A stretch of 64,000 bases of DNA from a virus (lineage: Duplodnaviria > Heunggongvirae > Uroviricota > Caudoviricetes), in IMG/VR virus record IMGVR_UViG_3300028797_000094, positions 166,524-230,523 of that record; one strand, given 5' to 3'. This document shows, piece by piece, positions 5,593 through 63,365 of this stretch. The notes beneath the pieces are model-generated. The model had not been told where the DNA came from. It saw only the letters and a program-made list of their open reading frames with translations, and did not search any database. Both the position numbers and the translations under genes were made by a program. How positions within the stretch are numbered: position 1 is the stretch's first letter; each line of letters starts with the position of its first letter.

Positions 5593-7230
5593 ATGAATAG
5601 AGAAGACTTATTTAATATTATAAAAAATTCAAGTTCAGAATATAATACTATTTCAAAGATAGAGAATTTAACGGAAAAATTACCAACACTAAATTCTACA
5701 GATTTTAAAGTATTAACTGAAAATCCTATACTACTTAAAATTATTAGAAATTATTTAGCAAACGCAGAAGATTTAGAAGATGATTTTAAAGATTTATTAG
5801 AAAGAATTATTAAAGAAGTTCCAAGCAATCCGATTATTATTGGCGTTGCTGGAACTTGAGGTAAAACCACAACTTGTAATTTATTATATAAATACTTAAG
5901 AGCTATCGGAAAGCATGCTTGTTTAATAAGTAGTTCTAAAATTGAATGTCCATTTTTTAAGTATGATAGTAATAATTCTCATATTAATACTATTTCAGAT
6001 AATAACTATATTAAAGAATTTGTAAAAAAAGCATTAATGTCTAATCCTGATTATATTATTATTGAAGTACATGAATTAGAAATTTGCAAACGTCAAGCTA
6101 ATTATAATGGTACTATGGCTACTCAAGCCTTTAGAAATTTAGCACCAGGACAAACTATTTTGGATGATATTCCTTTTGATTATAAAATTTTAACTAGTTT
6201 TGAGGAAGCTGTTGTTATGTCAGCATTTCCAAATGAAGATATAGTAATAGCAATAAAAGATTTTATTATTCCACAAGAAAATCAAGTTAGTTTTATTAAT
6301 CTTAATGGTTGCAGTAATGCAGAAGCTATTTATAATTCTTGCAAGTCTGGTAATCTTAAATGGCAAGCATCTACAATTTTAGCGAGACATCAAAATTTAT
6401 ATAATATATTAAAAAATGAAAATAAAATATATAGTGAGATTACAAACTTTTTTACTAATATTGATGGATGTGATGTTTCTTTTGACCTTAATGGTACTAC
6501 TTATATAAGTACAATTTCTAATAAATTTGAAATTGCAGTAGATGCTGTATCAGTTGCAAGTATTTTAGAATATTTAAATTTATTTGATAAAACAGTTTTT
6601 GATAATTGTCTTGCAACACTTAAACAAGCTGATCAAATTATAAAACTTACAAACAATAGAAAAATTATTATTACTCAAAATAATTATATTGATTATACTA
6701 ATGTGTATAAACTTCATGAAATAAATCCAGATGCATTTGCGGGAAAACCACAAAATAGTAAAGTTATTGTAATACAAAGTTCTCCATCAAGATATGGTTA
6801 TGGTATTGGTACATATGAAGAGTATATTAGTAGTAAAGCTGCCGTAGAACCAATTAGAAAGCATGATTGAATTGATAGTAATTGTTGACAGTATGTAGAT
6901 AAGCTAATTATTACTCCTGATAGCCCTGGTGAAGTAACACCAGAACAAGCTTGTGCAGATGTTAAAGAAATTTATGATAAATATTTACCAAAAGAAAATA
7001 CTTTAGAAATAGTAGAAGAAACTGATAGAAAATTAGCAATTAGTCAGGCTGTAGCAAATTTAGAAACAAATGATATTTTAATTATTAGTGGACGTGGTAC
7101 ACGTACTCAGTATTTTTGTAAAGCAGATAAAAAAATACATAATGGTCATGAAGTTATATTATTTTCAGATTTATCAATAGTATTACAAACTATTAATGAT
7201 ATATTTGGAATGGACACTATAATTGGATAG
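5593..7230 (+). CDS. Mur-ligase-like (MurE-type) ATP-dependent amide ligase 1, 545 aa (TGA read as Trp)
   Basis: P-loop GVAGT[TGA]GKTT, IIIE motif, and C-terminal DRKLAISQAV..NDILIISGRG. Three TGA, one inside the P-loop; ends in TAG. Confidence 0.75.
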
Positions 7231-7244
7231 GAGATTTTCAATAT

Positions 7245-8498
7245 ATGATACTATATGAATATATTAATGATAAAACATTAGATGAGAATAAGGTAAATAA
7301 TATAAAAATTATTGGTGTTACTGGATCTGCTGGCAAATCTTCTGTAATTACATTATTACATAAATTTTTTATAGCAAATAATATAAATGTTGCAAGTTTT
7401 TCTACTATAGGTACCTATATAAATAATGATAATATTCAAAAAAATAATACTTATTCTTCTATAGCAACTAAAAATGCTCTAATTAAATTTATATATCAAG
7501 CATACTTAAATAATTGTGAGTATATTATTATAGAATTGACGGCTGAAAATTCTTCTCAGACTTTTTGAGAAAATTTACCTTTTGAAATAATTGCAATTAC
7601 AAATTTAATCGGAGATCATTACTGACATTTTGACTCGGTTGAAAATTATATTAAAGCAAAAGCAAATTATTTTAATAATAATGTTAAATATAAAATAATA
7701 AATAATTTTGGTGAACTTGCTGATGAATATTCAGAGTGTGTTCCAGAAGCTCAAGATGAAATTCCTCAATTGCTGCAATATATTAAAAATAAACAAAATA
7801 TTTATTATTTTGGAAATCATCAAACAGATAATTTAGTGTTAGAACAATATAGCTTAATGCAGGATACTTTTAAAGCGTGTCTAAAAATTAATAAATATAA
7901 AGATACTATTTATACAAATTTATTTGGTAAAAGTAATATTGAAAATGTTTTATGTTATCTAGCAATATTAGATAATCTGGCATTACTAGATTTTGATAAC
8001 TATAATATTATAAACTTTTTACAAGAAGTTACAATAGATGGTAGAAGTGAATTGATAACTATTAATGAAAGATTTATATTTATAGATACATTTTATGAAG
8101 ATTTAGCTGGGGCTCGAACTGCACTAGATTATATTCAAAATAAAAATCCTATTGTAGTATTAGCTACTGGTTGTTTAGGAGAAATTGAACCGCTGTTAAA
8201 AACTTATTGATTAAATTGCAAAAATTTAATTTTAACTAGAACTTTTCGCTATTCTTTATTATTAGAAAAATGTCATATTAAAGCATTAGCGCATTATTAC
8301 AGAAATTTAGGTGATAAGGTTATTATTGAGTATGACAGATATGAAGCTGTTAAAAAAGCTTGTGAATTATCACAACCAGGTGATTATATTATTTTATTAG
8401 GTAAAGGCACAGAAAGATATCATAAAGAAAGCCAAGATGAGACAAATATAGTATGAGAAACTGATAAAGAAGTTGCTCAGCATTATTTAGGAGAGTAA
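7245..8498 (+). CDS. Mur-ligase-like protein 2, 417 aa (TGA read as Trp)
   Basis: GVTGSAGKSS, TNLIGDHY[TGA]H (compare MurE TNLxxDHLDYH), DGRSE and DRYEAVKKA..PGDYIILLGKGTE. Four TGA; ends in TAA. Confidence 0.85.
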
Positions 8499-8499
8499 T

Positions 8500-9297
8500 A
8501 TGATATATGTAAAAATAAATACTTCTACTATGTGTTCACCAGATGAACAAGACTCTATAGCTATATCAAAATTTGATTATTTTAAACTAAACTGTGGCGC
8601 ATTGATATGAGAAAATAATATATTAGTACAAAATCCTGAATTTATACAAAATTTTTTTACTGAACAAGTTTATGGAGTAGAAATAGAATTTTCTTGTAAA
8701 GAAATTTATAATTTATATTTAGCTTTAAATAAAGCCGGTATAAAATATGTAATTAGTAATAAAGCTCATGAAGCAGATTATGAAAATATTGTCATTAAGC
8801 CAGAGATTAGTGTAAAGCATGGTTATGAAATTAATTTTCCACCTGCTTATTCTAGAATTTCTGATGTGCTAAGTATTATCAGCCAATATGTAAAAATCAC
8901 AAAAAATTGTGCTTTACATGTACATATAAGCGACCCGAGATTACATATTGATATTCTTCCAACATTTACTGAGAAATATAAGCAATATGAATTGACAAAC
9001 ATAGCTTTACTCAAGGAACATAATTTATATCATATTTATAGTAGCATAGATTTAACAGCTGATGAGCTAAAGTCAATAGAGCAAGAAAGTCTTGTTACTA
9101 ATTATAATAATATTGAATCATTATTTGATAGAAGAAGACTAACTTTAAACGTATTTAAGGCTTTTAAAAGACATAGAACAGTAGAATTTCGTTTATATAA
9201 GTCTACTCTTGATTATACTGAATTAATGTTTTGTGTAAATAATGCAATAGAGATTGTAAATAATTGCTTAGCTGATATAAATAAAGAGACAGAATAA
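8500..9297 (+). CDS. Putative amidoligase (COOH-NH2 ligase family), 265 aa (one TGA)
   Basis: YGVEIEF, NCALHVHIS and TVEFRL motifs. The frame is open from ATG 8500 apart from a single TGA at 8608. Confidence 0.7.
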
Positions 9298-12640: not shown

Positions 12641-13396
12641 TTATACTTGTATATTAGGTCATTCATGGCCTAATCAAACATTTCTAAAAGTACTTTTTTT
12701 CAGTCCTATTTGTCTATAAAAAGTCTCATAAACTGTTTGTCAGTTTTCGCCATTTTTTCGTCTCAATCTTATATCTTTTACCATACTTTCATCTAAAATG
12801 GCTCTACCATTCTTAGAACCTTTACAGCCAGTATTATTTTTATGAAAGTTTTTATTTTCTTCTGTATAAACTTCTGGCATTATGTCGCTTCAAGTATGAC
12901 CTTGTCAAATTTTTTTAAAGCCAGATGGACCTATTTTATCTTTATATAGTTCTTCTACCTCATAACGACGCTCATGATTAGCATATCTTGTTCTAATATC
13001 AATAATATCTTCTATAGTTAATTTATGATTTGGATGTTTATCATCTCCGCTAAAACCATCATTATCACCACCATCAGTAATATTATAACCGATATCTCTG
13101 TTTTGGGTATTAAGTTTAGTAATTCAATATTTTTCAAATAAGCCTAAATCTTTTTTATCACATATTTCTATGATAGTAAATTCAAAATTTTCAACACCAT
13201 ATAATTGAAATGCTTTGTATAACGGCTTATTTGGTTCTTTCTTTCAAGAAGACTCTGAACAATGTTGTGCTCATCTTTTTTTAATATTAGTAGATCTGCC
13301 AATATAAAGTTTATTATTTACTAAATTTTTAATTTGGTAAATACCGCAAATTGCTTCTTCTCTAGCATAAGCTTCATGTAATTCTTTGAATGTCAT
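12641..13396 (-). CDS. Free-standing GIY-YIG homing endonuclease, 251 aa (TGA read as Trp; absent from the ORF track)
   Basis: GIYQIKNLVNNKLYIGRS, KR[TGA]AQH, EKY[TGA]I and GYNITDGG, plus two C-terminal repeats ending I[TGA]xGxT[TGA]-like. AAGGAG RBS; about 8 TGA and no TGG; ends in TAA. Confidence 0.9.
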
Positions 13397-19551: not shown

Positions 19552-19875
19552 ATGAAAACAACAGATTTTAATAAAATAGTTGATGAAACTTTAGAATTGT
19601 GTAAAAAAACTCTGACAGTTAAGCAAAATGAATATAATCTTGATGCAGACAGATTATCATTCTTTAAAGAAGGCAATGAGTTAACAAAATTAACTCCAGA
19701 AAGAACTTTATATATGTTTATGTTCAAGCATATTAAGAGTTTAGCTGATATGGTTGCAAGTGAAAAGAAATATTCTAAAGAACTTTGGGAAGAAAAGATT
19801 AAAGATAATATTAATTACTTATTATTATTGCGTGCATTATTAGAAGATGATAATATGTTTGAGGAGAAAAAATAA
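19552..19875 (+). CDS. Small helical protein resembling nucleotide-modification-associated (DUF1599/MazG-like) domains
   Basis: KQNEY..D.L..F, KHIKSL and EKIKDNINYLLLL pattern. Confidence 0.45.
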   Translation: MKTTDFNKIVDETLELCKKTLTVKQNEYNLDADRLSFFKEGNELTKLTPERTLYMFMFKHIKSLADMVASEKKYSKELWEEKIKDNINYLLLLRALLEDDNMFEEKK

Positions 19876-20360
19876 TGAGTAAAGCTTATACAGAATATAT
19901 TACAGAACACAGAGAAAACGTTAGAAAAGCTTATGAATGGCTAAAGAAACATAAAATTATTAAAGGCAATTTTGAAAAACAAATTATGCAACATGATGCA
20001 TCAAAGTATTCAGATGAAGAATATGATGCCTATGATAAATATTTTTATGGTAAAGAAAAGACTGAAAAAGTTGAATCAGATTTTAATTATGCTTGGCTTC
20101 ATCATATACATGAAAATCCACATCATTGGCAATATTGGGTTTTAAAACATGATGATGAACCAGAAGAAGCATTGGAAATGCCTTATGAATATGTGGTTGA
20201 AATGATTTGTGATTGGTGGTCATTTAGTCATAAAATAAATAAATTAGATGAAATCTTTAGTTGGTATAATCAACATAAAGATATGGTTTTACACGCAAAT
20301 ACAAGAAAATTAGTTGAAGATATACTAGAAGATATTAGAAAGGAACTTGATAATGAGTAG
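19875..20360 (+). CDS. DUF5662-like HD-type protein (paralogue 1)
   Basis: HDASK, HHIHENPHHWQYW and MPYEYVVEMICDW motifs. Confidence 0.65.
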   Translation: MSKAYTEYITEHRENVRKAYEWLKKHKIIKGNFEKQIMQHDASKYSDEEYDAYDKYFYGKEKTEKVESDFNYAWLHHIHENPHHWQYWVLKHDDEPEEALEMPYEYVVEMICDWWSFSHKINKLDEIFSWYNQHKDMVLHANTRKLVEDILEDIRKELDNE

Positions 20361-21225
20361 AGCTGACCAATATTTTAAAGAAGAAATTAATAAACTTTTA
20401 ACAGAAGGTTTTAATGATAAAGATTATAAAGTAAGACCTGTTTGGATAGATACAGATGAAAATGGTAATGAAGTAAGAACTCCTGCGCACACAATTAAAA
20501 TTTTTGGTGCAATGAGAAGTTATGATTTATCAAAAGAATTTCCAATTTTAACTCTAAGAACTCAACCATTTAAAACTGCAGTTAAAGAAGTTATTTGGAT
20601 GTGGTGTAAAAAGTCAAATGTTACTGCTGAATTAGGCGCAAAAATTTGGGATGCATGGACATTAGAAGATGGAACTATTGGAAAAACTTATGGATATCAA
20701 CTTGCTCAAAAATATGATTTACCAGAAGGTGATAATATGGATCAAGTTGAAGCTTTAATATATAATTTAAAGAATAATCCTATGAATAGACGTATGATAG
20801 TTACAATGTGGAACCCAAGAGACTTAAAAGAAATGAATAAAACTTTAATGCCATGTGTATATGAAACACTATGGGACGTAGAAAATGGGCGATTAAATTG
20901 TACATTAATTCAACGTTCAGGCGATACACTTGCAGCAGCTGCTTCTGGTGGTTTTGATACTATTGAATATGCTTTATTGGTTCATATGATTGCACAAGTT
21001 TGTGGCTTAAAGCCAGGAATTTTAAATCATTATGTTAATAATTTACATATTTATGATAGACATATTGAAGCTTGTAAAAAGCTATTAGAAAATCCAGAAT
21101 ATGATGCTCCAACTCTATGGATTAATCCTGAAGTTAAAAATTTAGAAGATTTTACCATTGATGATTTTAGACTTGATAATTATCAATCAACTAAATTAGA
21201 AGAAAAAATTCCTGTTGCGGTGTAA
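20353..21225 (+). CDS. thyA: Thymidylate synthase family enzyme with Asp at the Asn177-equivalent site
   Basis: YDLSKEFPILTLR, IWDAW, GKTYGYQL, catalytic PC, QRSGD, YALLVHMIAQ and LHIYDRH motifs. All 8 Trp are TGG. Confidence 0.9.
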   Translation: MSRADQYFKEEINKLLTEGFNDKDYKVRPVWIDTDENGNEVRTPAHTIKIFGAMRSYDLSKEFPILTLRTQPFKTAVKEVIWMWCKKSNVTAELGAKIWDAWTLEDGTIGKTYGYQLAQKYDLPEGDNMDQVEALIYNLKNNPMNRRMIVTMWNPRDLKEMNKTLMPCVYETLWDVENGRLNCTLIQRSGDTLAAAASGGFDTIEYALLVHMIAQVCGLKPGILNHYVNNLHIYDRHIEACKKLLENPEYDAPTLWINPEVKNLEDFTIDDFRLDNYQSTKLEEKIPVAV

Positions 21226-21234
21226 GGAGAAATT

Positions 21235-21741
21235 ATGTTTAAAGTAATTAACCCAGCAGACGAAAAAACTAGAAAAGTTGGCGACCCAGCTTTTGATTTG
21301 TTTATAGAAAAGCCTAATACAGTTATATTTTTAGCTGGGCCATGTCCAAGAAAAAACTATGATGAAGACTGGCGAAATGAAGCTATTGAATATTTAGAAA
21401 AAGCGGGTTTTGATGGAGTTGTATTTAATCCAACAAATCCTTATTATAATACTTCAGACCCACTTTATTTAGAAAAACAAACTGAGTGGGAACAAAAAGC
21501 AATTCACATGTCAGATAAAGTTATATTTTGGATTCCTAGAACTGAAGAACATCCAGCATTAACGACAAATATAGAACTTGGTGAATTCCTAACAAAAGAA
21601 AATATTAACAAAATTTTAATAGGTATGCCTGACTTTGCAATAAAAAATAATTATATAAAAATCAGGCTAAAAATGTTAAATAAATATTATGATACAGATT
21701 TAAAAACATTAATGTATAGAGTTGTAGAGGAACTTAAATAA
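21235..21741 (+). CDS. Nucleoside 2-deoxyribosyltransferase-like (nucleotide N-glycosidase) protein
   Basis: IFLAGP, QTEWE, IFWIPR and TNIELG motifs. Confidence 0.7.
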   Translation: MFKVINPADEKTRKVGDPAFDLFIEKPNTVIFLAGPCPRKNYDEDWRNEAIEYLEKAGFDGVVFNPTNPYYNTSDPLYLEKQTEWEQKAIHMSDKVIFWIPRTEEHPALTTNIELGEFLTKENINKILIGMPDFAIKNNYIKIRLKMLNKYYDTDLKTLMYRVVEELK

Positions 21742-21742
21742 A

Positions 21743-22321
21743 ATGACAGATAAAGAAAAAAGAGACTTACATGTAGAAACTATTTTAGATCATATTACAG
21801 TTGTTAAAGATTTATGCTATCAAATGGGAATTTCTGAGCTTGGTGATGCACATGATTTAAGTAAGTTTACACCAGAAGAATTTGAAATCTATAAATATGC
21901 AGATGGTAAAAGAAGTCCACATGATAATGCAAGAGATGAATTAGGCTATTCTCCATCTTGGATTTATCATAAAGCTAGAAATCAGCATCATTGGGAGTAC
22001 TGGACTGATTTTAATGAAGCAAAACCTAATGGAGATGGAACCTTTACTATTGTTTGTAGATGTGTTAAAATGCCATATGATAGAGTTATTGAAATGCTTT
22101 GTGATTTTGTAGGGGCAGGAAAAGCCTACTCTAAAGAAGCTTGGACAGTTCATACACCTCTTGATTATTGGAAGAAAAACTGTGAAGGCAAAAGAGCTAT
22201 GCATAAAGATTCGGAAAAACTTTTAGTTACTCTTCTTACTCAATTAGATAAATCAGATAGTTTAGATGCGTTTGTTTCTTGGTATAATAAAAATAAAGAA
22301 AGATTAGAAAAAAATTATTAA
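21743..22321 (+). CDS. DUF5662-like HD-type protein (paralogue 2)
   Basis: HDLSKF, HKARNQHHWEYW and MPYDRVIEMLCDFVGAGKAY motifs. Confidence 0.65.
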   Translation: MTDKEKRDLHVETILDHITVVKDLCYQMGISELGDAHDLSKFTPEEFEIYKYADGKRSPHDNARDELGYSPSWIYHKARNQHHWEYWTDFNEAKPNGDGTFTIVCRCVKMPYDRVIEMLCDFVGAGKAYSKEAWTVHTPLDYWKKNCEGKRAMHKDSEKLLVTLLTQLDKSDSLDAFVSWYNKNKERLEKNY

Positions 22322-22348
22322 TAAAGAAAAGTTTGAGGTGGCTGAATA

Positions 22349-22999
22349 GTGAGTACTATTTTTACTCAAGAAGATCGTAATGCTATTTTTAATTATTATA
22401 GACAAAAATATGGTAATGCAGTAAAATGGCAAACAATTTTAGCAAATGTATGTGATTTTAAGCAACATGAGCAAGAAATAAAAAATGATCCACAATTATT
22501 TTTAGAGTGGTATGGATTTTTATATTATTTAGCACATATTGAAGGAACTATTGGTTTATTTGGTTATACATCAAAAGGTATTTTTCATCGAATTTTTACA
22601 ATGTTTGGGAGAGCTTTTTTAGAAGAAGCTGAAGTTAAAGATTCTCCTGAAGGAAAAGAGCTTGGTATGAAATGGTATAAAGATAATTCAGCTTATTTTC
22701 ATACTGGTAATGGTGACCCCGATGATGTAGATATAGTTGATAAAAATGGCATTCTTTATGATGTTAAAAATAATAATCCAATTTTTAATAAAGCGCATAT
22801 TGCACAAAATCTTTTAGCTTATAATTATTATTCAGGCCAAGTAGGCAAATTTGATGTTAAAACTCAAAAATTTATAGATATATTTGCTACTTTGGCTTCA
22901 GTAAAAGATATTGCTAAAAGGTATGGCTTAGATGAATTATTATTTAATTATGACTCATCTGAAGAAGATATTGAAAGATATTTAGGTTTGATTGATTAA
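22349..22999 (+). CDS. Hypothetical protein with a weak PD-(D/E)XK-like motif
   Basis: GAGG RBS and GTG start; PDDVD...YDVK. Confidence 0.5.
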   Translation: MSTIFTQEDRNAIFNYYRQKYGNAVKWQTILANVCDFKQHEQEIKNDPQLFLEWYGFLYYLAHIEGTIGLFGYTSKGIFHRIFTMFGRAFLEEAEVKDSPEGKELGMKWYKDNSAYFHTGNGDPDDVDIVDKNGILYDVKNNNPIFNKAHIAQNLLAYNYYSGQVGKFDVKTQKFIDIFATLASVKDIAKRYGLDELLFNYDSSEEDIERYLGLID

Positions 23000-23013
23000 T
23001 ATAGAGGTAATTA

Positions 23014-24633
23014 ATGAAAAATATATTAGAATTAGCAAAAGAGCTTAATATTCCAGAAGAATATGTTATTCCTTATGGCTGGGATAAAGCTAAGATAGAT
23101 TTAAAATATAAAGACGTTTTAAAAGATAGACCAGATGGTAAGCTTGTTTTAGTTACTGCTATTACACCAACAAAAGCTGGTGAAGGAAAAACAACAACTA
23201 CTATTGGTTTACATGATGGCTTACGTAGAATTGGTGTCAATTCACTTGCTTGTTTACGTGAGCCAAGCTTAGGCCCAGTTTGGGGAATTAAAGGTGGTGC
23301 AGTTGGTGCTTTAAAATCTACAATTGTTCCAAGTGATGATATTAATCTTCATTTTACTGGCGACTTTCATGCACTAACTTCTACAATTAATTTAATGGCA
23401 GCAATTATTGATAATCATATTTATCAAGGAAATGAATTAAATATTGACCCAAATAGAATTGTTTGGACACGAGCTTTAGATATTAATGATAGAGCTTTAA
23501 GAAGTGTTACAGTAGCACAAGATGATAAAAAAGCTACTCCGCATCATAATGAATTTGTTATTACAGTTGCAAGTGAATTAATGACTATTTTAACAATTTC
23601 ACAATCTGAAGAAGAATTTATTGATAGAGTTAACAAAATTATAGTTGCTTATACTTATAATGATGAGCCTGTTTATTTTGGTCAATTTAATTGTGGTAAA
23701 GCTATTCTTAAAATGATGAAAAATACAATGAATCCTAATATTGTTCAAACACTTGAAGAAAACCCAGTATTAGTTCATTGTGGCCCATTTGCTAATATTT
23801 CAATTGGAGTTAACTCAATTAATGCTACCAAGATGGCTTTAAAAATGGCTGATGTAGTTGTTACTGAAGCAGGCTTTGGTGGTGATTTAGGCGCTGAAAA
23901 ATTCTTAGATATTAAGTGTCAACTTGGTAATTTATCACCAGATGCTATTGTTTTAGTTGCAACAATTAGAGCACTTAAACTTCATGGTGGTGTTAAATTT
24001 GAGGACTTAGATAAAGAAAATATTGAGGCATTAAAAGCTGGTTATTGTAATCTAAAAAAACATTATGAAAATATGTGTACATATGGTGTTCCAGTAATTG
24101 TAGCTATTAATAGATTTCCAAATGATACAGGTAAAGAACAAGAAACTTTGTGTGAATTATTATTAAATGATAAGATTTGGTATGCTTTAAATAGAGCTGC
24201 CTTAGATGGCAGTGAAGGTGCTGTTGATTTAGCCAATCAAGTAATGACTGCAATTAATTTAGATACTAAACACATAGCTTGCTTTGGTGGTTTTGAACCG
24301 CTTTATAGCTTTGATACACCAATTTTAACTAAGATAGATAAAATCTGTAAAGAAATTTATGGTGCTTCTGGTGTAGAATATACAGATTTAGCTCTTAAAC
24401 AAATTAAACAATATGAAGATATGGGCTATGGCGGTTTACCTGTTTGCATTTCTAAGACTCCAAATTCATTAACAGATGACCCAAAAATTTTAGGAGCTCC
24501 AACAGATTTTACTATTCATATTAGAGAAGTAAGATTATATGCGGGTGCTGGCTTAATTGTTCCACTTTCTGGTGCTTTATTATTGATGCCTGGTTTGCCA
24601 AAAGAGCCACGTTGTTTAGATAAATTTAATTAA
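23014..24633 (+). CDS. fhs: Formate--tetrahydrofolate ligase
   Basis: AITPTKAGEGKTT, REPSLGP, INLHFTGD, HCGPFANI and TEAGFG motifs. Confidence 0.95.
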   Translation: MKNILELAKELNIPEEYVIPYGWDKAKIDLKYKDVLKDRPDGKLVLVTAITPTKAGEGKTTTTIGLHDGLRRIGVNSLACLREPSLGPVWGIKGGAVGALKSTIVPSDDINLHFTGDFHALTSTINLMAAIIDNHIYQGNELNIDPNRIVWTRALDINDRALRSVTVAQDDKKATPHHNEFVITVASELMTILTISQSEEEFIDRVNKIIVAYTYNDEPVYFGQFNCGKAILKMMKNTMNPNIVQTLEENPVLVHCGPFANISIGVNSINATKMALKMADVVVTEAGFGGDLGAEKFLDIKCQLGNLSPDAIVLVATIRALKLHGGVKFEDLDKENIEALKAGYCNLKKHYENMCTYGVPVIVAINRFPNDTGKEQETLCELLLNDKIWYALNRAALDGSEGAVDLANQVMTAINLDTKHIACFGGFEPLYSFDTPILTKIDKICKEIYGASGVEYTDLALKQIKQYEDMGYGGLPVCISKTPNSLTDDPKILGAPTDFTIHIREVRLYAGAGLIVPLSGALLLMPGLPKEPRCLDKFN

Positions 24634-24643
24634 GAGGTGTTAT

Positions 24644-25519
24644 ATGATTTCAATTAAAGAATATGTAGCTAAAAGAAAAGAAGAAATTAAAGAAGAAGTT
24701 AAAGCTTTTTCTAATTTAAAGCTTGTAATTATACAAATTGGTGATAACCCTGCAAGTAATGCTTATATTAAAGGTAAGTTAAAAGACTGCGATGAAGTGG
24801 GTATTAAGGTAGAGCTAATTAAATTAGCTGAAGATGTTGATGAGCATTATTTATTAAATTTAATTGACTGTCTAAATGCAGATAAAGAAGTTACAGGTTT
24901 AATTGTTCAACTTCCACTTCCAAAACATATTTCTGAGCAAAAAGTAATTGAAGCTATTAGCCCAGAAAAAGATGTTGATGGTTTTTCAAAATTAGCTTAT
25001 GTTAATCCAGGAACTCCACAAGGAATTATTGATTATTTAGAATACAATAATTATAATTTTGTTGATAAAAATGCAGTAGTTATTGGTCGTTCAAATATTG
25101 TTGGTAGACCAATTGCAAGATTATTATTAGATAGAAGCTGTAATGTTTCTGTTATTCACAGTAAAACTTCAGTTGAGCATAAACAAGAGCTTTTAAAGAA
25201 AGCTGACTTAGTTGTTGTAGCTACTGGTCATAGAAATACTATTGTAAATGAAGACCTAGAACTTGATAGACAAATAACAACTATCTTTTTTGAAACTTCA
25301 AATGGTGGTGGAGGTGCTTATCAAGGTCCAGATAAAATTATTTATGCAACTCCATTTATAGTAGATGTTGGTATGAATAGAAATGATGAAGGCAAGCTTT
25401 GTGGTGATTGTGAAGCTGTTACAGTTTGCGAAAAAACTCCAGTTCCTGGCGGTGTTGGACTATTAACAAGACTTGCTTTAATTACAAATTTAATGAAATT
25501 AGCTAAGAGAGGAAATTAA
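24644..25519 (+). CDS. folD: Bifunctional methylene-THF dehydrogenase/cyclohydrolase
   Basis: VQLPLP, PEKDVDGF, VIGRSNIVGRP, VDVGMNR and TPVPGGVG motifs. Confidence 0.95.
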   Translation: MISIKEYVAKRKEEIKEEVKAFSNLKLVIIQIGDNPASNAYIKGKLKDCDEVGIKVELIKLAEDVDEHYLLNLIDCLNADKEVTGLIVQLPLPKHISEQKVIEAISPEKDVDGFSKLAYVNPGTPQGIIDYLEYNNYNFVDKNAVVIGRSNIVGRPIARLLLDRSCNVSVIHSKTSVEHKQELLKKADLVVVATGHRNTIVNEDLELDRQITTIFFETSNGGGGAYQGPDKIIYATPFIVDVGMNRNDEGKLCGDCEAVTVCEKTPVPGGVGLLTRLALITNLMKLAKRGN

Positions 25520-25520
25520 T

Positions 25521-25976
25521 ATGGATATTTATGAAATTAAAAAACTTTTAGATGCTCCAGATAGAAGTGTTAAAGATAATCTTATTATATTTGCTTATAT
25601 TTTAGATGAAATGTTTGATTTATATGAAAAGAAAAATGCTAATTATGGAGACAGCTTTGGTGAAACTTGGGCAAAGTTAGGTCCAATTTCAGGGCTTACA
25701 AGACTATCAGACAAGCTAAATAGAGCTATAAATTTAGTAACTGGTGGTAAAAATGACTTTGAATCTATTGAAGATACATTTATTGACTTAGCTAATTACT
25801 CAGTTATGTGTTTAGTTGAGCTACAAAAAGAAAAGTTAGCTGATATTAAGGCTGATACTAAGGCAAGAAATAAGTATATTCAACAATATTTTGATGATCA
25901 AAAAGCTATTGAAGATAAAATAGTTGATAAAAAGTCTAAAAAGACTGGCAAAACTATATTAAATGAGGAGAAATAA
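25521..25976 (+). CDS. DUF1599 (nucleotide modification associated domain 1)-like protein
   Basis: KKNANYGDSF, RLSDKLNR and EDTFIDLANY motifs. Confidence 0.7.
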   Translation: MDIYEIKKLLDAPDRSVKDNLIIFAYILDEMFDLYEKKNANYGDSFGETWAKLGPISGLTRLSDKLNRAINLVTGGKNDFESIEDTFIDLANYSVMCLVELQKEKLADIKADTKARNKYIQQYFDDQKAIEDKIVDKKSKKTGKTILNEEK

Positions 25977-26582
25977 ATGATTACTGGTATTGTTTGTTGT
26001 GCAAGAGACTGGGGAATTGGTAAGAAAAACGGACTTTTATTTAATATAGAAGATGATATGAAGTATTTTAAAGAACATACTACAGGTTGTATCTGTGTAT
26101 TTGGTTATAATACTTATATGTCATTACCAAAAAGACCTTTACCAAATAGAATTAACGTAGTTTTATGGGATCAAGCAACTTCACCAAATTGTTTAGAAGG
26201 TGCAATTACTTTTAAAGAGTTTGATGCTTTATTAAATTTTGTTCAAATAATGTCAACACAATATATAGTTTATATTTGTGGTGGTGCAACTATCTATAAA
26301 TTATTTTTACCTTATTATGACGAAATTTGTTTAACAAAAGTTTATGCAACTGACCCAGAAGCAACAGCATTTTTTGATTTATCAGAGGCTGATTTTGTTT
26401 CAGATTATGCTTCACCAATTTTAGAAGATAAAAAAACAGGACTATGTTATAGATTTATTCATTTGTTATGTAAAGCTGATGCAAAAATTTTCTTACAAGA
26501 TTTTCCAGATGTTGATTTAAAAAAGCCTAAATTAACTGATGCAGATATTTACGATGAAGAAGGAAAATTAAAGACTGTATAA
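25977..26582 (+). CDS. folA: Dihydrofolate reductase
   Basis: GIGKKNGL, DDMKYFKEHT, RPLPNRINVVL and ICGGATIY motifs. Confidence 0.9.
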   Translation: MITGIVCCARDWGIGKKNGLLFNIEDDMKYFKEHTTGCICVFGYNTYMSLPKRPLPNRINVVLWDQATSPNCLEGAITFKEFDALLNFVQIMSTQYIVYICGGATIYKLFLPYYDEICLTKVYATDPEATAFFDLSEADFVSDYASPILEDKKTGLCYRFIHLLCKADAKIFLQDFPDVDLKKPKLTDADIYDEEGKLKTV

Positions 26583-27579: not shown

Positions 27580-30500
27580 ATGCCAAAAATTTATAGTAAA
27601 TTAGTAAATCCAAAAGGTAGCAAAGTTGCTGATTTAAAAGATATTGATTTAGGTAATGCTGAGGAAATTAAAGGTAAGGTATTATTTATTAATAATAGTG
27701 GAGAAGCTGAATGAAAAACCCCTGGTTCTGTTCCTGAATTAAAGGGTGATAAGGGTGATAAAGGCGATCCAGGTGAAAAAGGTGCTGATGGTGCTCCTGG
27801 AGCTGACGGTGCTCCTGGTGCTGATGGTGCTCCTGGTGCCATAGGTCCACAAGGTCCTGCTGGTGCTGATGGTGAAAGCATTTATACCATTACTTTAGAT
27901 AATGATTTTGATTCAATTCCATGTGCAGCTGATGGCACTCCAAGTTATACCCCACAACAATGAATTGATCAAACAAGTCATAATATTAAAGTTTTTTGTG
28001 GAACAAGTCAAGAAGAATTTTTAATGTCTGACACAGTTCCAGTAGTAAATGATAATATTTTAACAGTAGTATATGAATATGATAGTACTAAACTTACTGT
28101 ATATAATTCATGGCCAGTTGTAGCAGTTAATAATTTTACACAATATATTACAGCATTAAATTCTGATAAAGAAGTTATCACTTATAAATTGTATAAAGGT
28201 AGTACATGACTTGCTCAAGCTAAATTTGAAATTTCAAAGCTTCGTGCTGGACAAGCAGGTGCAACAGAAACTATTTCAGGTTTTCATGAATATTATTTTG
28301 CCTGCAATAAATCAGACTATAGTGAGTTTCCTGCAGCAGATAAATTCATAATTAATGAGCAAGTTAATACTAAATGAAAAGAAGATATTTCTCAAATTAC
28401 TTTTGATGAAACTCATCAATATTTGTGAAATGGTGAAGAAACTGTTCTATATGATAGTGTTACTGGTACATCAAGAAGTTTATTTACAGCACCAGCATTG
28501 CTTGGTCATTTTGCTGTTGATGGTAAAGGTATTCAAAGTATTGAAAATTGATATTTAGCTACACCAACAGATGAAACTCCAGAGTTTACACCAGCTTCGC
28601 CATGAAGTCAAACATATATTGTGCCAGACGGTAATAATTTATATGTTTGAAATGTTGAAAGAATTATTTTTTCAGATCTTTCACAAACTGTAACCAATCC
28701 TACAATTGTTACATCATTAGGTGTTCCTGGTATACCTGGAAAAGGCATTGATGGATTAGTTGAATATTATTATACATCAAATACTGATAATTATGAAAAT
28801 ATTCCATCATCTCAAAAATTTATCTATAATGGTGAAATTAATACTGCTTATTGAAAAACTTCAACTACTGAAGTAATTTTTGATGAAGAACACCCATACT
28901 TATGAAATGGTGAATCAATTGAATATGATGATAATACTCATCAAGAAACTTCACCAGTTGTAATTGCTAATTGGTCTGCAGACGGCCGTGGAATTGATGA
29001 AATTAGAAATTATTATGCAAGAACTACTACAAATAGTAGACCACCATTCGTATTCGCAGATTTAGATGATCCTGAATCTGCAACATATTTAGCTGGATGA
29101 TCTATTACTTATGTGGCTCCAGATGCAGAAAATAGATATTGTTGAAATGTTGAAGTTATTTTTTATAATGATGATACAATTGAAACAACACCAGTAGCTT
29201 TGTGCTCATATTTAAGTGAAGATGCGGTTGATACTACAATTCATTTAAGTACAAATATTATTAGAAAAGCAAGTGATGATGTTACTTTTAATCCAACTGT
29301 AATTACTGCACAAGCTTTTGCAACTACTGGTTCTGGTGAACCTTCTGAAGTTACTAATAATGTTTATTGAAAATATTGATATAATAGTGATACTGCAAAT
29401 GCTCAATATGCGAGTGACATTATAGCACCATTAAGTATTAATGTTATAGCTAATACTGAAATAATTACAATTGAAGCTTATTCAGATGAAAATTATCTTA
29501 ACTTATTAGATAGACAGACTGCAAATGTAATTCATGATGGTCAAGATAATGAAGCAATTTATAGAGTAGTATTAGATAATAACTTTGATTCTGTACCTTG
29601 TGATGCAGATGGTATTATTTCATATACAAGTTCAGACTGACATAATCAAACTGCTCATACTTTTAAAGTTTATTTTGGTAATGAACAACAAAACTTTAAA
29701 ATTGCCAAAAAAACAGACCCAGTGGTAAGTACACCAGATTTAACTATTTTATATTCACTTGAAGCAGTAACATTTGAAAGTAGTATTGATTCTAATATAG
29801 CTATTTCTAGTCAAACTGCTTATTTAAATTCACTTACTGCAGATAAAGGTAAAGTTCATTATGAATTATATAAAAATGGTGAACAATTAGCTTGGGCTGA
29901 TTTTGACATTGTAAAAATTAAAACAGGTAAAGATGTTGTAGATTATTATATTTTAACAGACTATTCTGCAATAGGTAGAGCTGGTGATGGACAAACAATT
30001 ACTCCAGCACAATTAGAAATAAAAGCTTATAAGAAAGTTGGTAAAGATCTTCCAACACTTATTACACTTGCACAATTAGCACAACAAGATCGTGAAGTAG
30101 ATTTAGTTATTAAAAAAGATAATACTACTGTAACATTAGATTCTAATTATAAAGTTAGTACAAGTGGATTAACAGATAAATTTGAAATTGAATTAAAGAA
30201 CCATACAGATAATACAATTTTATATGATAAAGAAACAGTGTTACTAGTAAAAGATGCTGTTCAAACTTATGGACATACTGTTTTCTGTGCTGACCCAGAA
30301 GGTTTAACTCCAGAAGCTATAGATTATTCACCAAGTGTATCAAAAAAATACACAACTATATATTGAGATGGCAATGTAAATGCTGCAGCAAATTGAGCTA
30401 GTTTACCAGCAAATTTAAATTGATCTTTATATCAACCAGCTACTATTGTTAGTGTAATAAAACAATATGCACAACAAGATAAAGCTATTTCAACAGCTCC

Positions 30501-33500
30501 TGCAGAAAGTTCTGAGCTATGGGTTAATGTTCCAGGAGCTTATGATCAAACTAAATATTATTGGGAAAGAACAAAAACAACTTTTGATGATGGAACAATT
30601 TCATATTCAGTTGGTGTTAAAAATGAAGAACTAAATGAATGCTTTGTATTAGCACAAGGTAGAACTAAGTCTATTAGAGGCACCCGTAATGTTATGTGAA
30701 GTTTGCGTGATCAATTAAAAGTTGATGATATTTGATTCTGTACAGAAGATTATTATCAAAATTCACATAGTAGTACTCCACAAGATGCTAATGATGAGCT
30801 TATTTTTGAAGCTAATAATTTATATGTAATTAATGAAATTACTAAAGAAGCTGGTGCTGTTACAAATATTAGTTTTGATCAAGTTGTTAGTGAAGAAATT
30901 GTTAATAAGTTAACAGCAAATTATATTGACGCTCATGAAATTACTGCCGATCTTATTAATATTATAAAAACTAGTGGTGGTCAAAGCAGTACTATATTTA
31001 AAGCTGATGGTAGAAGAAGTACACAAGAACACCCAATTTCAGATGATGATAGAGTTCAAATTGGTGGATTTAAAGTAACTGATAGTTCTTTACACACTGA
31101 GGGTCTTACAAGCATGTCACAAACTTATCCAATAGATCCTAACACTGGTGAACGTGCAATAGATCCTGAAACAGGTGAACCAATTTATTTAAATGGTGTT
31201 TATGTTGGTACTGATGGTATTAGACTTGGTGAAAAATTTAAAGTTGAACCAGATGGTACAGTTACTGCATCTGATTTCCAAAAATGAATTAGAAATGATG
31301 TTGATTATCAAGTAAGTAATTCAGGCTCACAAATTCCAAGTACTTGGGATACTTGAGCTAATGTTATAAATAATTATGTTGATGGTACTTATTTATGAAC
31401 TAGAACAACACCAGTTTACCAACAAGTTGGAAGTAACCAATATAGTAGAGGTGAAGCAACTTATACAGTTTCTAGTAAAGGTATTGAAGGTACTGCACCT
31501 CATATAGATGCTACAACAGGAAATTGATTTATTGGAAATACTGATACAGAAGTTCATGCAGAAGGTCCACAAGGTATTCCAGGTGTTTCTTATACAATTA
31601 ATATTGAAAATGAATATGTAACAATTCCTTGTGATGATACAGGTGCTCCAATTGATCCAATTGATCCAAATTGAGCAACAACTACTAAGCATACTTTAAC
31701 ATTTTTAGAAAATCTTAGTAGAATTGCTGTAGATGATATTACTATTTCTAGCACTATACCAAGCTCTGGTACAGGCTATACATTATATTATAATATAACA
31801 GGCTTTACTACAATTCGTGGCCCAAGAAAAATTGGAACTTATACTATTTCTGCAGATGTTACAGCAATGCCTAATGCAACAGCAACTGGATGCATTGACT
31901 ATAGCTTATATAAAGGAACTATTTTAGTTGCACAAGCTAAATTTGAATTAGTTAAACAATTAAATGGTGCTGATGGTGTAAGTCCAGTAATTTATAATAT
32001 TAAAAAAGATATTAGTTATATTGCTAAGACAACTGATACAAATAATCCATATAAACAATTAGGTTTTAGTTTTGGTTTAGACAAAATTGAAGGTAGTACT
32101 ACAAGCCCAATAAAAGCTTTTTACTATGAAATTATTGTAGACAATACTGCTACTCCTATTCAAGGTTCTATAGATGAAACTTCAACTGGTGATGGTCTTA
32201 TTGATGTTGATCTTTCTGCAACACATGTTGCTGGTGATTATAATATAACTCCAAATACACAAGTTGAACTTAAAATTTATAGTGATAATTCTTATTCAGC
32301 TGCTAAATTATTAGATAAAGAAACCATTATGGTTGTTTCTGATGGTGATGATGGTGATACTCCAGAAATTATTAATGATTATTGATATATTAATGGCACT
32401 TCAACTGGCGTAAAAGCATTAGGACAAGATGGAACTTCACCATATACTATAAGTATTACTAATGATTTTGATTCAGTATCAGCAGACAATAGTTTAGAGT
32501 ATGATGATAGTTATGCTTTTGCAACTCAAACTTTACATACTGTTAGTGTATATTATGGAAAAGATTTAGTTAATTTTATAGTAGTAAATTCTGCACCAAG
32601 TGCTTCAGATACTGGTGTAAAAGTTTATTGTCATGTAGATAGCGTAACTGCAAAATATACAACACATAGCTCTGCAGATCATTTTGATAATTATCTTGAT
32701 AATAGTAGTAGTTTAGCATTTAACCCTAGATTATCTGCAAAAGGTAAAATTATTTATGATTTATATGTAGATGGTCATTTACAAGATTCTACAGAATTTG
32801 TAGTAGTAAAGAATAAATCTGGTGCTGATGCAATTGACTACTATATGATATTAGATGCTAATACAATTAGTATTGATGTAAATAATAATAATGCTATTTC
32901 ACCTTCACATATTATGCCAGCTGGTCGTAAACAAATTGGTAGCGGCAGTGCTTCTGCTTTTCCAAATGCTGGTTCTAGTACTCCTAACTATTATAAAGTA
33001 TATTGGGATAATGATTCAGAACATCCAATTGATTGGACTGCCCTTTATGATACGGGTATTCCTACAACAGGAGCTGCAAGTCATACTAGATTAAATATTG
33101 AATTATATAAAACTACAGATAAAGCAGCTGCTGATTTATTAGATAGAGAAACTGTAGCTGTTGTTAAAAATGGTAAAACTCCAGTTAAGGGCACTGATTA
33201 TGATGATGGTAAATCTATTACAATGCAAGCTAATGAAGCTGCTTGTCAAGCTATTGGTGATGGTTATATTAATTCAAGTGATGGTCATTTATATGTAGTA
33301 AATGCTACTAGTCCATCTATAACTTTTACAGATTGTGGTAAAGTTAAACCAATTAAAGGTACTGATTATGATGATGGTACTCCTGCTCCATATATTACAA
33401 GTACTGTACCTCAATATATAAGTTGAAGTATAGAAGCTCAAACAGATCCAACAGGATCAGAAGATGAGGTTGATGCTGCACATAATACATATGGAAAATG

Positions 33501-35814
33501 ATGTGAAGTACCATATAATTATGATGCTTCATATAAATATTGAACAAGAACTGTAACTACTTATAGTGATAGCACTCAAGCTAATCCACATATAGATAAA
33601 AGTACTCCAGTTTTATGTCAAGAATTAAATGAAGCATTTAGTGTTACACAAGGTAAATCTACGACTTATTATAGCTCAACTATCCCTGAGAATCCAAATA
33701 AAGGTGATGCTTGATTCTGTACTGGATATATAGATGTGGAAGGTGATCCAGTAAATAATGTTCATAAATATGACACAGATACACGATATGGCGCACATAA
33801 ATGAGTAATTGGGCCAGATGACAAATTTTGATTTACTTTATATGATACTTTTACAACAACTACAAGTTGAGAAGACTTTAAATCAGCTGCCCAACCAATA
33901 GAATGAAGTACTATTAATAGTAGTTCTGAATGATTTAGATATAAAATTGCATATTTTAAAAATACTTTATATCAATGAGATGGCGCAGCTAGTTATCCAA
34001 TATGACATCCAATTAGTGATGAAATAATTGCAAATAAAGTTACTGCAACTTATATTAATTCATTAGGAATTACTACTGCAGGTATTGAAGTTAAAAATGG
34101 CAATAATACAGTTTTATCTGCTTATGCTGATCAACCAAACAATGTTATCGTTGGTGGTTTTACTGTTGGAATAGATAGTTTAACTAAAGCTACTAATAAT
34201 AGCTATGTTAAACTTGGCACAGATGAAATTATTTTAGGTAAAGCTATTAATAATAATTTATATCCATTTAAAGTTACAAATTCTGGTAATGCAACAATTA
34301 ATTCTGCTAATATTGGATTGCCTTTAGCTTTTGCTTCGGGTGTATATTGAAAAACTTTACCAACAGATTTTGATCATGGCTGACCACTATATAATCCACA
34401 GACTGGTGGACAACATACGCTTACTTTTACTTTTCCATCTGAATCAAAAGTTGATGATAATGATGATACAAGTTATGTACTTGACAGTATTGCAGTAGAA
34501 GCTAATGATAGTAGTACTGTAATATCAGAAACAATAGTTGGAAAACAAATTAGTAAATTATCAGCAACTGTAAATAGAGAAGTTATAACTAGAAATAGCG
34601 GCGAGCCATTTGGTGAAATAAGATATGAAGTAATTATTTTTGCAGATGCTGCAAAATTTAGTAGCAGCACTCCAGTAGTTAATATACAAATAACTGCTAT
34701 AAAAACTAATTTTTTAACTAGTAGATCTTATACATCAACTAAAAGTAGCTTTTTAGAAGCTAGTACTTGCTTAGGTCATAATGAAAATGTTGCTGGCTAT
34801 ACTAATTATGCAAGTGCTGATTGTATTACTATTAGTAACGGTGCTTTGCAATTTAATAATGCAAAATTAAGTAAATATGGTATTACTATTACTGATTTAA
34901 ATGATCAAGAACAGTTTACTCCTTGAACAAGCGTACCTGGTAGTTTTGGTCATTTTGTATATAATGAATTAACTAATTGAACACCAGTTAATTTAACTTT
35001 AGCTGATTCAGCTGTTAAATTAGGTGATTATGTAACTATGCAGTTTGCAGCAGATAGTACAGCAAATCCATTTAAAAAATTTAATTATCCACAACCTACT
35101 ACTCTTAATTTACCATTAGATAAAGCTTTACCAGAAGGTTTATTATATAATAGTGTAAAGGGTCAAGTATTTGGTTTATTTCCTAATACAGTTAATTTAT
35201 GAATAACTGGTACAAATAGTAATACAGTTTTAAATATTTCTGGAAAAGTATATAATAATTTTGGTATTGATACAATGCCGATTTTACCAACTGCACCATT
35301 AATTATACCTTTGTGCTATTCAGAAGGTTATGGTGGTTATGTAGCAACAGGTGTCATGATTAATAATTCAACATTAAAAGCTTATAATATATTAGGATAT
35401 GAAGATCAAACTGATAATAAACTTTATTTTCTTTTTGCTGTCGCTCGTCCATATATTTATACATATGATATAAGTTATAACGTTCACTTTACAAATGTTA
35501 GAGTTGGTGGTACTTTAATACCAGATAGTAATTATTCTTTTAAACAGGTTGGCGGAAGAACAGACTTTATTAGACCAGAAGAGGTTGTATTTGGTAATGG
35601 TATAAATAGATTTTTACAAATAGATTTATATGGTATGTATTATACAGGATTTGATAAGAATAGTTCTACTACGCACCATATTACTTTTGATAGCTGTGTT
35701 GAATATTCATATTTAGGTAAAGATAGTCATGATCGAGACGAGTGAAAAGCATCTACTGCTAATGGTACAAGTCTTGATGTATCTGTAATAATGAAAGGAG
35801 CAATAATAGACTAA
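27580..35814 (+). CDS. 2,744-aa tail or receptor-binding-type virion protein with a collagen segment and repeated domains (TGA read as Trp)
   Basis: Read codon by codon: no TAA or TAG from ATG 27580 (AAGGAG RBS) to TAA 35812. About 43 TGA against about 8 TGG; recurring YL[TGA]N.E and ND(F)DSxPC repeats. Confidence 0.85.
27745..27879 (+). repeat. Collagen-like Gly-X-Y tract (15 triplets)
   Basis: GDK GDK GDP GEK GAD GAP ... GES. Confidence 0.9.
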
Positions 35815-37468: not shown

Positions 37469-37547
37469 ATAAAAATTAGACAATATTTCAAAATATTGTC
37501 TTTTTTTATTGTATAATAATATGATAGATAAAAGGAGTTTAAAAATT

Positions 37548-38105
37548 ATGCAATTTATTAAAACAAGAGATGTTAAAGACCCTGTTAGAAATGTGGGTGA
37601 AAATGCTGGTATTGATGTCTATATTCCAGAAAATAATGGACAATTTAGATTAGATTTACTTTTGAAAAATCCAGCTGTACATTTTGCAGATAGTAATGAT
37701 TCAATTATGGAAGCTTTAAAAGTTGGTGCAAGTTATCTAACTCCAGAAGGTATAATTAATATTGCACCACACAAAGATATTATTATTCCAAGCGGTATCA
37801 GAAGTAAATTTGGTCCAGAACTTGCATTAATTGCAAATAATAAATCAGGAATTGCAACAAAAAAGAAATTAGTTTTTGGTGCATCAGTAATTGATTCAAG
37901 TTATCAAGGTGAATGGCATTTACATTTAATTAATACTTCTGATGAGTATCAAGTATTAGAATGTGGTCAAAAAGCAATTCAATTTATTCCACATTTAATT
38001 TCAACAGAACCAGTTGAAGTTTTAGATTTATCACCAGAAGAATTTTATAAAGATTCAACATCAACTCGTGGTGAGGGTTGGCAAGGAAGTACAGGTTTAA
38101 AATAA
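37548..38105 (+). CDS. dut: Trimeric dUTPase
   Basis: AGIDV, KSGIA, VIDSSYQGE and RGEGWQGSTG motifs; TTGTATAAT at 37509. Confidence 0.9.
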   Translation: MQFIKTRDVKDPVRNVGENAGIDVYIPENNGQFRLDLLLKNPAVHFADSNDSIMEALKVGASYLTPEGIINIAPHKDIIIPSGIRSKFGPELALIANNKSGIATKKKLVFGASVIDSSYQGEWHLHLINTSDEYQVLECGQKAIQFIPHLISTEPVEVLDLSPEEFYKDSTSTRGEGWQGSTGLK

Positions 38106-63290: not shown

Positions 63291-63365
63291 AGGGGTTTCG
63301 GTAAGTGGTTATGCCAGGAGTCTTCAAAACTTCTATCGTGGGTTCGAATCCTACAACCCCTGCCA
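63291..63365 (+). tRNA. tRNA-Trp with UCA anticodon (opal-decoding), CCA encoded
   Basis: Acceptor stem AGGGGTT/AACCCCT, discriminator G, CCA end. Anticodon stem GGAGT/ACTTC with loop CT-TCA-AA (63324-63326). T arm GTGGG-TTCGAAT-CCTAC; short variable loop. Confidence 0.92.

Follow-up and report, generated by a model that had tools for sequence, protein, structure and literature searches.

A predicted dCMP methylase of the thymidylate synthase family and its formate-linked gene module in a TGA-recoded gut phage

Introduction

The formation of 5-methyl-dCMP by an enzyme of the ThyA fold is known for Xanthomonas phage Xp12, whose dCMP methyltransferase (QNN97214.1) has relatives in PaMx74 and AXL1, phages with 5-methylcytosine (5mC) for cytosine in their DNA. 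The substitutions N177D in the Escherichia coli thymidylate synthase (TS) and N229D in that of Lactobacillus casei are cited in PMC8670742 as conversions to a dCMP methylase, and in metaviromes (MetaGPA, eLife 2021, PMC8670742) Asp177 showed the strongest association of any residue with cytosine-modified contigs. Here, a gene of a jumbo phage (Caudoviricetes) is described that encodes a ThyA homologue with Asp at this position, probably a dCMP methylase making 5-methyl-dCMP. It is located at 20353..21225 (+) of a stretch of 64,000 nucleotides, hereafter the window, which covers bases 166524-230523 of the 237,392-bp IMG/VR virus record IMGVR_UViG_3300028797_000094, rated as 100% complete by CheckV. 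The genome has a GC content of about 29% (71% A+T), and the public runs containing the phage are bovine gut metagenomes.

Of seven metagenomic Asp177 homologues, five gave 5-methyldeoxycytidine (5mdC) in vivo together with T4 gp1, as did the ThyA homologue of Xp12; deaminases adjoining Asp177 homologues turn 5mdCTP into dTTP, and in Xp12 both 5mC and T were labelled from cytosine (bioRxiv 10.1101/2024.12.05.627091). Two further positions (E. coli numbering) separate the products: hydroxymethylases are acidic at 143 and enzymes with methyl products are not, and D169N is found in flavin-dependent 5-hydroxy-dCMP synthases (PMC13326640). It is already published that dCMP can be methylated by Asp177 ThyA homologues and that 5mC phages use such enzymes.

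Active-site residues of the ThyA homologue

The gene encodes a protein of 290 amino acids in a stop-free open reading frame (ORF); between its start and the stop of the preceding gene there is an overlap of 8 nt. The protein matches PF00303 (Thymidylat_synt) with an E-value of 6.6e-75 and 252 bits, against a cut-off of 24.3 bits. In a HMMER search of the PDB, the best sequence match was Bacillus subtilis ThyA (E ~1e-66; 42-46% identity for 1B02 and 1BKO), which is also the closest solved structure, and T4 gp42 was absent among the 60 PDB matches listed. An AF2 model (pLDDT 93) agrees with 1b02 at TM 0.90/0.94, supporting the TS fold only. Among the NCBIfam models, TIGR03284 scored above its cut-off (174 vs 108), while NF002495 (264.7 vs 327) and other NF models scored below theirs.

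HMMER pairs SGDTLAAAASGGFDTIEY with SNDM---ALGNPFNVFQY of B. subtilis ThyA, which places an Asp opposite the specificity Asn and adds a three-residue insert; MAFFT alignments with E. coli ThyA (from NC_000913.3) gave the identical register. The Asp, residue 202 of the phage protein, is encoded by GAT at 20956..20958 (+), as read directly from the sequence, and occupies the position of the pyrimidine-specificity residue, E. coli Asn177 or L. casei Asn229. A preliminary description of the window, made from the sequence alone, had placed Asp at the dUMP/dCMP specificity residue and quoted the peptide with its three-residue insertion relative to E. coli; all of this was confirmed by the multiple alignment. 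The segment TLAAAASGGF (20926..20955, +), between Asp191 (E. coli Asp169) and Asp202, has 10 residues against 7 in E. coli, and was modelled with pLDDT 92-96.

The remaining active site is that of a TS. The tetrapeptide Leu165-Met-Pro-Cys168 (20845..20856, +) provides a non-acidic residue at E. coli position 143 and, with Cys168, the catalytic Cys146; both L165 and C168 are invariant in a multiple alignment. In alignment with E. coli ThyA, the equivalents of this Cys and of the phosphate-binding R21, R126, R127 and R166 are all present, as are E58, W80, W83, Y94, L143, Q165, S167, D169, H207 and Y209. The C-terminal tail reads KIPVAV (KAPVAI in E. coli ThyA), and residue 147 is Val, the same as in B. 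subtilis ThyA.

With Asp202, the protein departs from the canonical dUMP-specific TS (EC 2.1.1.45), in which Asn at 177 pairs with O4/N3-H of uracil. The dCMP hydroxymethylase gp42 of T4 also belongs to the ThyA superfamily and also has Asp at the specificity position, but gp42 carries Asp143, lacks the TS tail and gives tetrahydrofolate (THF) as product, whereas the phage protein has Leu143 and an intact tail. Nor does it carry the Asn169 of RB69 gp48-type 5-hydroxy-dCMP synthases, since its QRSGD motif retains Asp. By the published residue rules, the combination of Asp177, Leu143, Asp169 and the TS tail points to the 5-methyl-dCMP class.

The Xp12 enzyme was taken as the comparison system. 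Both proteins have the ThyA fold, the catalytic Cys, Asp at 177 and a linked phage dihydrofolate reductase (DHFR) gene, and the phage protein further shows the non-acidic 143, Asp169, folate contacts and tail expected of an Xp12-type dCMP methyltransferase, in which the methylene would undergo reduction and not hydration. The predicted chemistry would also be shared, namely the conversion of dCMP and methylene-THF to 5-methyl-dCMP and dihydrofolate (DHF). The two enzymes are 23% identical over 141 residues and lie in different ThyA branches, so the Asn-to-Asp switch took place independently of the Xp12 lineage; the Xp12 enzyme differs in having Asn143, Pro147 and another C-terminus. Its gene is adjoined by a deaminase and a HAD hydrolase, whereas the present genome lacks the linked dCMP-deaminase-family gene and instead encodes Fhs, FolD, HD and DUF1599 proteins. 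To the metagenomic Asp177 homologues (PMC8670742; 10.1101/2024.12.05.627091) the same reasoning from diagnostic residues applies, and their deaminase linkage recurs among relatives of the present phage, but this genome falls in a deaminase-less sub-group.

Conservation and origin of the Asp177 clade

All but one of the 120 nearest 90%-identity clusters (65-88% identical) share the motif QRS[GA]D-x10-D (119 clusters); the exception has Asn. Across 30 distinct clade genes from IMG/VR and assemblies the specificity codon is GAT in 19, GAC in 9 and AAT in 2. Such synonymous change, in an A+T-rich genome where a single G-to-A step would return Asn, argues that Asp is kept by selection. The engineered E. 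coli N177D and L. casei N229D enzymes differ from an intact TS by this one substitution only, but these dCMP methylases are laboratory mutants of reduced efficiency, whereas the phage Asp is natural and maintained by selection.

The phage clade that bears the insertion came out as one group (SH-aLRT 99) in a maximum-likelihood tree, with Asp in 34 of its 36 rows and Asn in the other 2, and the Asn/Asp state in the wider B. subtilis-ThyA-like group requires at least 4 to 6 changes. A scan of GTDB, with one genome per species, found 13 ThyA genes that combine QRSGDFLAAAGPGGIN-type insert sequences with Asn. These are 39-46% identical to the query, belong mostly to Tissierellia/Peptoniphilaceae (Gallicola, Citroniella, Helcococcus) and represent its closest cellular relatives; like B. 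subtilis ThyA, and unlike the phage protein, they are all Asn177 dUMP enzymes. The same three-residue insert together with Asn was also seen in clusters P0131, P0136 and P0143. Since the housekeeping enzymes of Tissierellia carry it, the insert is not the specificity switch. All 76 of 76 non-clade ThyA homologues in the scan have Asn, and Asp occurred only on three phage-like contigs of metagenome-assembled genomes, two of which also have HD, deaminase and DHFR genes. As read from these sequences, the phage clade is a descendant of the insertion-bearing housekeeping TS type in which Asn subsequently changed to Asp. Asp177 and Asn177 enzymes on this backbone are 60-67% identical.

The thyA module and one-carbon supply

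The search for a second thyA or thyX, which the preliminary description had called for, returned neither: 20353-21225 is the sole PF00303 match in the complete genome, and no ThyX was found there. A dedicated DHFR gene (25977..26582, +; PF00186, E 2.6e-29) lies in the same module, and its position beside the sole ThyA-type enzyme suggests that this enzyme releases DHF and methylates reductively rather than hydroxymethylating. That reading of the linked DHFR, already put forward in the preliminary description, gains from residues 143 and 169, the intact tail and the sole-ThyA status. No C5 DNA methyltransferase (PF00145) was detected, which means that the genome does not itself encode a way of forming 5mC after replication. 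Every available sequence-level test (Asp177, Leu143, Asp169, Cys146, tail, DHFR, sole-ThyA status and the gene content around Asn-bearing relatives) backs a possible 5-methyl-dCMP synthase, as first suggested, and a TS-fold enzyme whose substrate has switched from dUMP to dCMP is the overall explanation favoured, with reasonable confidence.

The gene belongs to a compact block of genes on one strand, free of in-frame TGA (19552-26582). The block starts with a small DUF1599-like ORF (19552-19875, +; phrog_6802), which is retained in the corresponding module of a complete relative, G003. Directly upstream of thyA is a gene for a DUF5662 protein, a predicted HD-type metal-dependent phosphohydrolase (19875..20360, +; PF18907, E 9e-38), and directly downstream one for a nucleoside 2-deoxyribosyltransferase-like (NDT-like) protein (21235..21741, +; PF15891, E 8.4e-12), which not all relatives have next to their Asp177 gene. 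A second DUF5662/HD-type paralogue (21743..22321, +), recognised by a profile match and the metal-binding pattern, and an unassigned ORF (22349-22999, +) come next. They are followed by genes for the formate-tetrahydrofolate ligase Fhs (23014..24633, +; PF01268, E 1.2e-212), the methylene-THF dehydrogenase/cyclohydrolase FolD (24644..25519, +; PF00763 and PF02882) and a DUF1599 (nucleotide modification associated domain 1) protein (25521..25976, +; PF07659, E 2.5e-8; phrog_1485), with DHFR at the end.

Further along the window, at 37509..38105 (+), is a gene for a divergent trimeric-type dUTPase-family protein with an N-terminal extension, matching PF00692 with 25 bits and TIGR00576 with 54 bits, the latter below its cut-off. 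All five dUTPase motifs are readable, and the protein therefore reads as a dUTPase-family enzyme. Both DHFR and dUTPase had been noted in the window beforehand. The dUTPase-like gene was also considered as a dCTPase of the T4 gp56 type, a candidate that was dropped; T4 has no PF00692 match.

NrdD, a formate/nitrite-transporter-family (FocA-like) protein and NrdG are encoded at 135902-140410 of the genome (L014:7902-12410), outside the window. Together with Fhs, FolD and DHFR they make up a formate-based supply for one-carbon metabolism and ribonucleotide reduction, with formate plausibly serving both as the reductant for nucleotide reduction and as the one-carbon source. A literature search found no paper pairing formate-tetrahydrofolate ligase with a phage thymidylate synthase.

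The proposed pathway is as follows. Asp202 would pair with the N3/4-amino face of cytosine in bound dCMP, and Cys168 would attack C6; methylene-THF would then donate a carbon that becomes attached at C5. With its TS folate cage and C-terminal tail intact, the enzyme is expected to reduce the exocyclic methylene by hydride transfer from the folate within the closed active site, yielding 5-methyl-dCMP and DHF. The phage DHFR would recycle DHF, and Fhs with FolD would rebuild methylene-THF from formate. More tentatively, host kinases may take 5-methyl-dCMP to the triphosphate, the phage family-A polymerase may insert 5mC for much or all of the cytosine in virion DNA, and one of the linked hydrolases, HD (DUF5662) or DUF1599, may lower the dCTP pool. 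Whether virion DNA would contain 5mC in place of most cytosine is, on this sequence evidence, judged a nearly balanced question.

Several observations weigh against this pathway. Two of the seven Asp177 homologues assayed gave no 5mdC (bioRxiv 10.1101/2024.12.05.627091), and at 23% identity to the Xp12 enzyme the function of the phage protein is deduced from a few residues and not from orthology. Several components of the 5mC module known from other phages are missing: no deaminase was found in the genome by Pfam, by a clade-specific hidden Markov model (--max) or by a zinc-motif scan; no dNMP kinase was found with an L018 thymidylate-kinase-like query or a Walker-A scan of small ORFs; and the genome has no proven or recognisable dCTPase. 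A 71% A+T genome would encode no dTMP route if the enzyme acts on dCMP, and the dUTPase-family gene in the module also resembles an ordinary dUMP-to-dTMP pathway. In a Markov analysis of observed/expected 4- and 6-base palindromes, the Asp177 genomes G000 and G003 showed no informative difference from the Asn177 genome G001: CTAG and TCGA were lower in G000 and G003, and GATC and CATG were low in all three.

Some of these points would suit a working thymidylate synthase, or a dual dUMP/dCMP enzyme, in which Asp is tolerated, perhaps through the remodelled 169-177 segment. The protein is the only ThyA or ThyX of an A+T-rich genome that has no other dTMP route, neither a deaminase nor a dNMP kinase was found, its identity to B. 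subtilis ThyA is 42-46% and the fold near-identical, and the 5mdC-negative homologues would be compatible with such an activity. The dUTPase-family and DHFR genes belong to the same module, dUTPase directly following DHFR in G003; the preliminary description had noted that a dUTPase accords with an ordinary dUMP-to-dTMP outcome, which is so, but the gene fits either reading. However, the insert is common to Asn177 housekeeping enzymes and so offers no special compensation, the non-clade homologues in the GTDB scan uniformly retain Asn, and Asp has been held although one transition would restore Asn. Moreover, Asn versions within the clade occur where other genes handle cytosine chemistry, as described below. 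A dUMP-converting enzyme is accordingly regarded as distinctly unlikely, and dCMP methylation remains the preferred reading.

Accessory proteins of the module

The DUF5662 proteins share an invariant H..HD..H..HH..E..D pattern, an HD-type metal-binding signature. The ten best VIA-align matches of a DUF5662 AF2 model (pLDDT 91) were all HD-domain hydrolases, with Z of 5.0-8.0, values that are modest for a helical protein; they include DatZ, the dATP-removing enzyme of the Z-genome phage S-2L. Foldseek gave no significant match for the same model, and a literature search found no paper mentioning DUF5662. From the model, DUF5662 might act in dCTP clearance or nucleotide dephosphorylation, which is an inference only. 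One or two copies of this gene lie beside the ThyA/DHFR genes in most relatives. DUF1599 could not be linked to MazG-type pyrophosphatases by lenient Pfam thresholds, PHROGs or the ESM Atlas.

The content of the cluster raises another possible explanation, that the enzyme acts on dCMP but forms a different C5 product. Either 5-hydroxymethyl- or 5-hydroxy-dCMP would then begin a hypermodification, with later steps performed by the NDT-like, HD and DUF1599 proteins. A nucleotide modification associated domain 1 protein, two HD proteins and an NDT-like protein in one cluster would suit such a pathway, and the pairing of TS-family and NDT-family proteins recalls MilA/MilB (PMC5175136 and PMC4081090). 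Yet position 143 is Leu and not Asp or Glu, position 169 is Asp and not Asn, the TS tail is intact, and a dedicated DHFR is present, whereas hydroxymethylases release THF. A scan of about 60 ORFs revealed no tailoring gene of the glycosyl, carbamoyl or kinase type, and in the relative L018 a T4-type hydroxymethylase is a separate gene. This alternative is considered very unlikely, and the residues favour 5-methyl-dCMP as the product.

Relatives of the phage

Related loci were used as natural controls. The genome G003, complete with direct terminal repeats, has the order DUF1599-like, HD, ThyA (Asp), Fhs, FolD, DUF1599, DHFR, dUTPase-like, and no deaminase was detected in it by Pfam. Among the Asp177 locus rows, with the phage window included, DHFR lies at a distance of up to 10 kb in 39 of 46, in keeping with DHF and not THF as the product. 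A dCMP-deaminase-family gene was found at the same maximum distance in 25 of these 46 rows versus 2 of 49 Asn177 outgroup loci, counts that are not phylogenetically independent, and they reproduce the published linkage of Asp177 homologues with deaminases. Most deaminase-less loci carry Fhs and FolD in the module instead.

This linkage bears on a further possibility, that dCMP is methylated but 5-methyl-dCMP is mainly an intermediate, which a host dCMP/dCTP deaminase would convert to a thymidine nucleotide, leaving virion cytosine ordinary or partly replaced by 5mC. The module would then be a formate-fuelled route of reversed order that supplies a 71% A+T genome with dTTP. In many close relatives a deaminase gene accompanies the Asp177 gene, phage deaminases of this kind act on 5mdCTP and Xp12 derives both 5mC and T from cytosine (bioRxiv 10.1101/2024.12.05.627091); in addition, Fhs, FolD and DHFR would suit a large one-carbon flux, and no dCTP-excluding enzyme is proven. 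On the other hand, the present genome and G003 have no deaminase of their own and would wholly depend on a host enzyme, and in known phages with both an Asp177 homologue and a deaminase 5mC still replaces cytosine in DNA. Thymidine supply as the main purpose is held to be unlikely.

The Asn177 members of the clade are also informative. In P0045 (contig L018/L023) the Asn177 gene is followed by a thymidylate-kinase-like gene and then by a second ThyA-family gene, whose product shares 37% identity with T4 gp42 (E 3e-43), carries Asp at both 143 and 177 and lacks the tail; DUF5662, DHFR and Fhs genes come after it. This locus with two ThyA genes (L018:10001-12206) belongs to an IMG/VR 3300001598 contig and was also seen in L023. 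By these features, the L018 relative is probably a 5-hydroxymethylcytosine phage of the same family. The other Asn177 lineage, the complete genome G001, has a single ThyA and a canonical dCMP deaminase (95.8 bits). The natural Asn177 members of the clade are thus found where there is a second route.

In another relative, a block of four genes for NAD salvage and synthesis (NAPRTase, a CTP_transf_like nucleotidyltransferase-family gene, an isochorismatase-family gene and NAD synthase; L020:10954-13941) separates the Asp177 thyA from the DUF5662-deaminase-DHFR genes, with an ART-PolyVal gene nearby.

TGA recoding and other features of the genome

TGA is read through in late genes of the phage; one ORF of 2744 aa (window 27580-35814) contains 43 in-frame TGA versus 8 TGG codons. 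The genome encodes a tRNA with the anticodon TCA (window 63291-63365) and a class-I Trp/Tyr-type tRNA synthetase (genome 232345-233430), and the genes of nucleotide metabolism and replication have no in-frame TGA. In the preliminary description it was speculated that 5mC deamination would favour the TGG-to-TGA change. This is not supported, since the Asn177 relatives (L018/L023, L025) are equally recoded, with multiple in-frame TGA codons (up to 8 per ORF), and equally A+T-rich, with similar GC, although the comparison is a weak test that rests on only two Asn lineages.

Three Mur-ligase-family genes (window 5593-7230, 7245-8498 and 8500-9297), all with in-frame TGA, and an Amidoligase_2 gene (window 35960-37300) were also identified; folylpolyglutamate- or peptide-ligase roles are possible for their products. 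A GIY-YIG endonuclease gene (window 12641-13396, minus strand) with 8 in-frame TGA is situated between the genes of the gyrase/topoisomerase A and B subunits. A full-length Lon protease with LON substrate-binding, AAA and Lon_C domains is encoded at 229989-232358 of the genome, starting at position 63466 of the window and running off its end.

Implications for the phage family

The sequences show two features that are new. One is a separate Asp177 lineage in TGA-recoded rumen and gut jumbo phages, derived from an insertion-bearing TS of Firmicutes. The other is a sub-group of it without a deaminase or a second TS, in which the phage encodes a formate-based one-carbon supply. The coupling to a phage formate pathway without the usual deaminase would go beyond the published cases.

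A broader proposal, speculative and rather unlikely as a whole, is that the TGA-recoded ruminant-gut jumbo phages represented by this genome and G003 possess a self-contained formate-to-5-methylcytosine pathway. It would consist of the FocA-like channel, Fhs, FolD, the Asp177 dCMP methylase and DHFR, the dUMP-type TS and the 5mC-nucleotide deaminase having been dropped. These phages would put 5mC in the place of cytosine, all thymidine would come from the host, and dCTP would be excluded by the HD (DUF5662) or DUF1599 hydrolase, which might represent a new type of dCTP-excluding enzyme, analogous to DatZ.

If the prediction is true, the DNA of a widespread family of large, code-switching phages from rumen and gut would be fully or largely 5mC-substituted, with consequences for restriction enzymes, for modification-dependent defence systems and for the long-read basecalling of gut viromes. 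The independently evolved Asn/Asp pair of high identity would, in that case, also provide a clean natural system for the study of pyrimidine specificity in thymidylate synthases.

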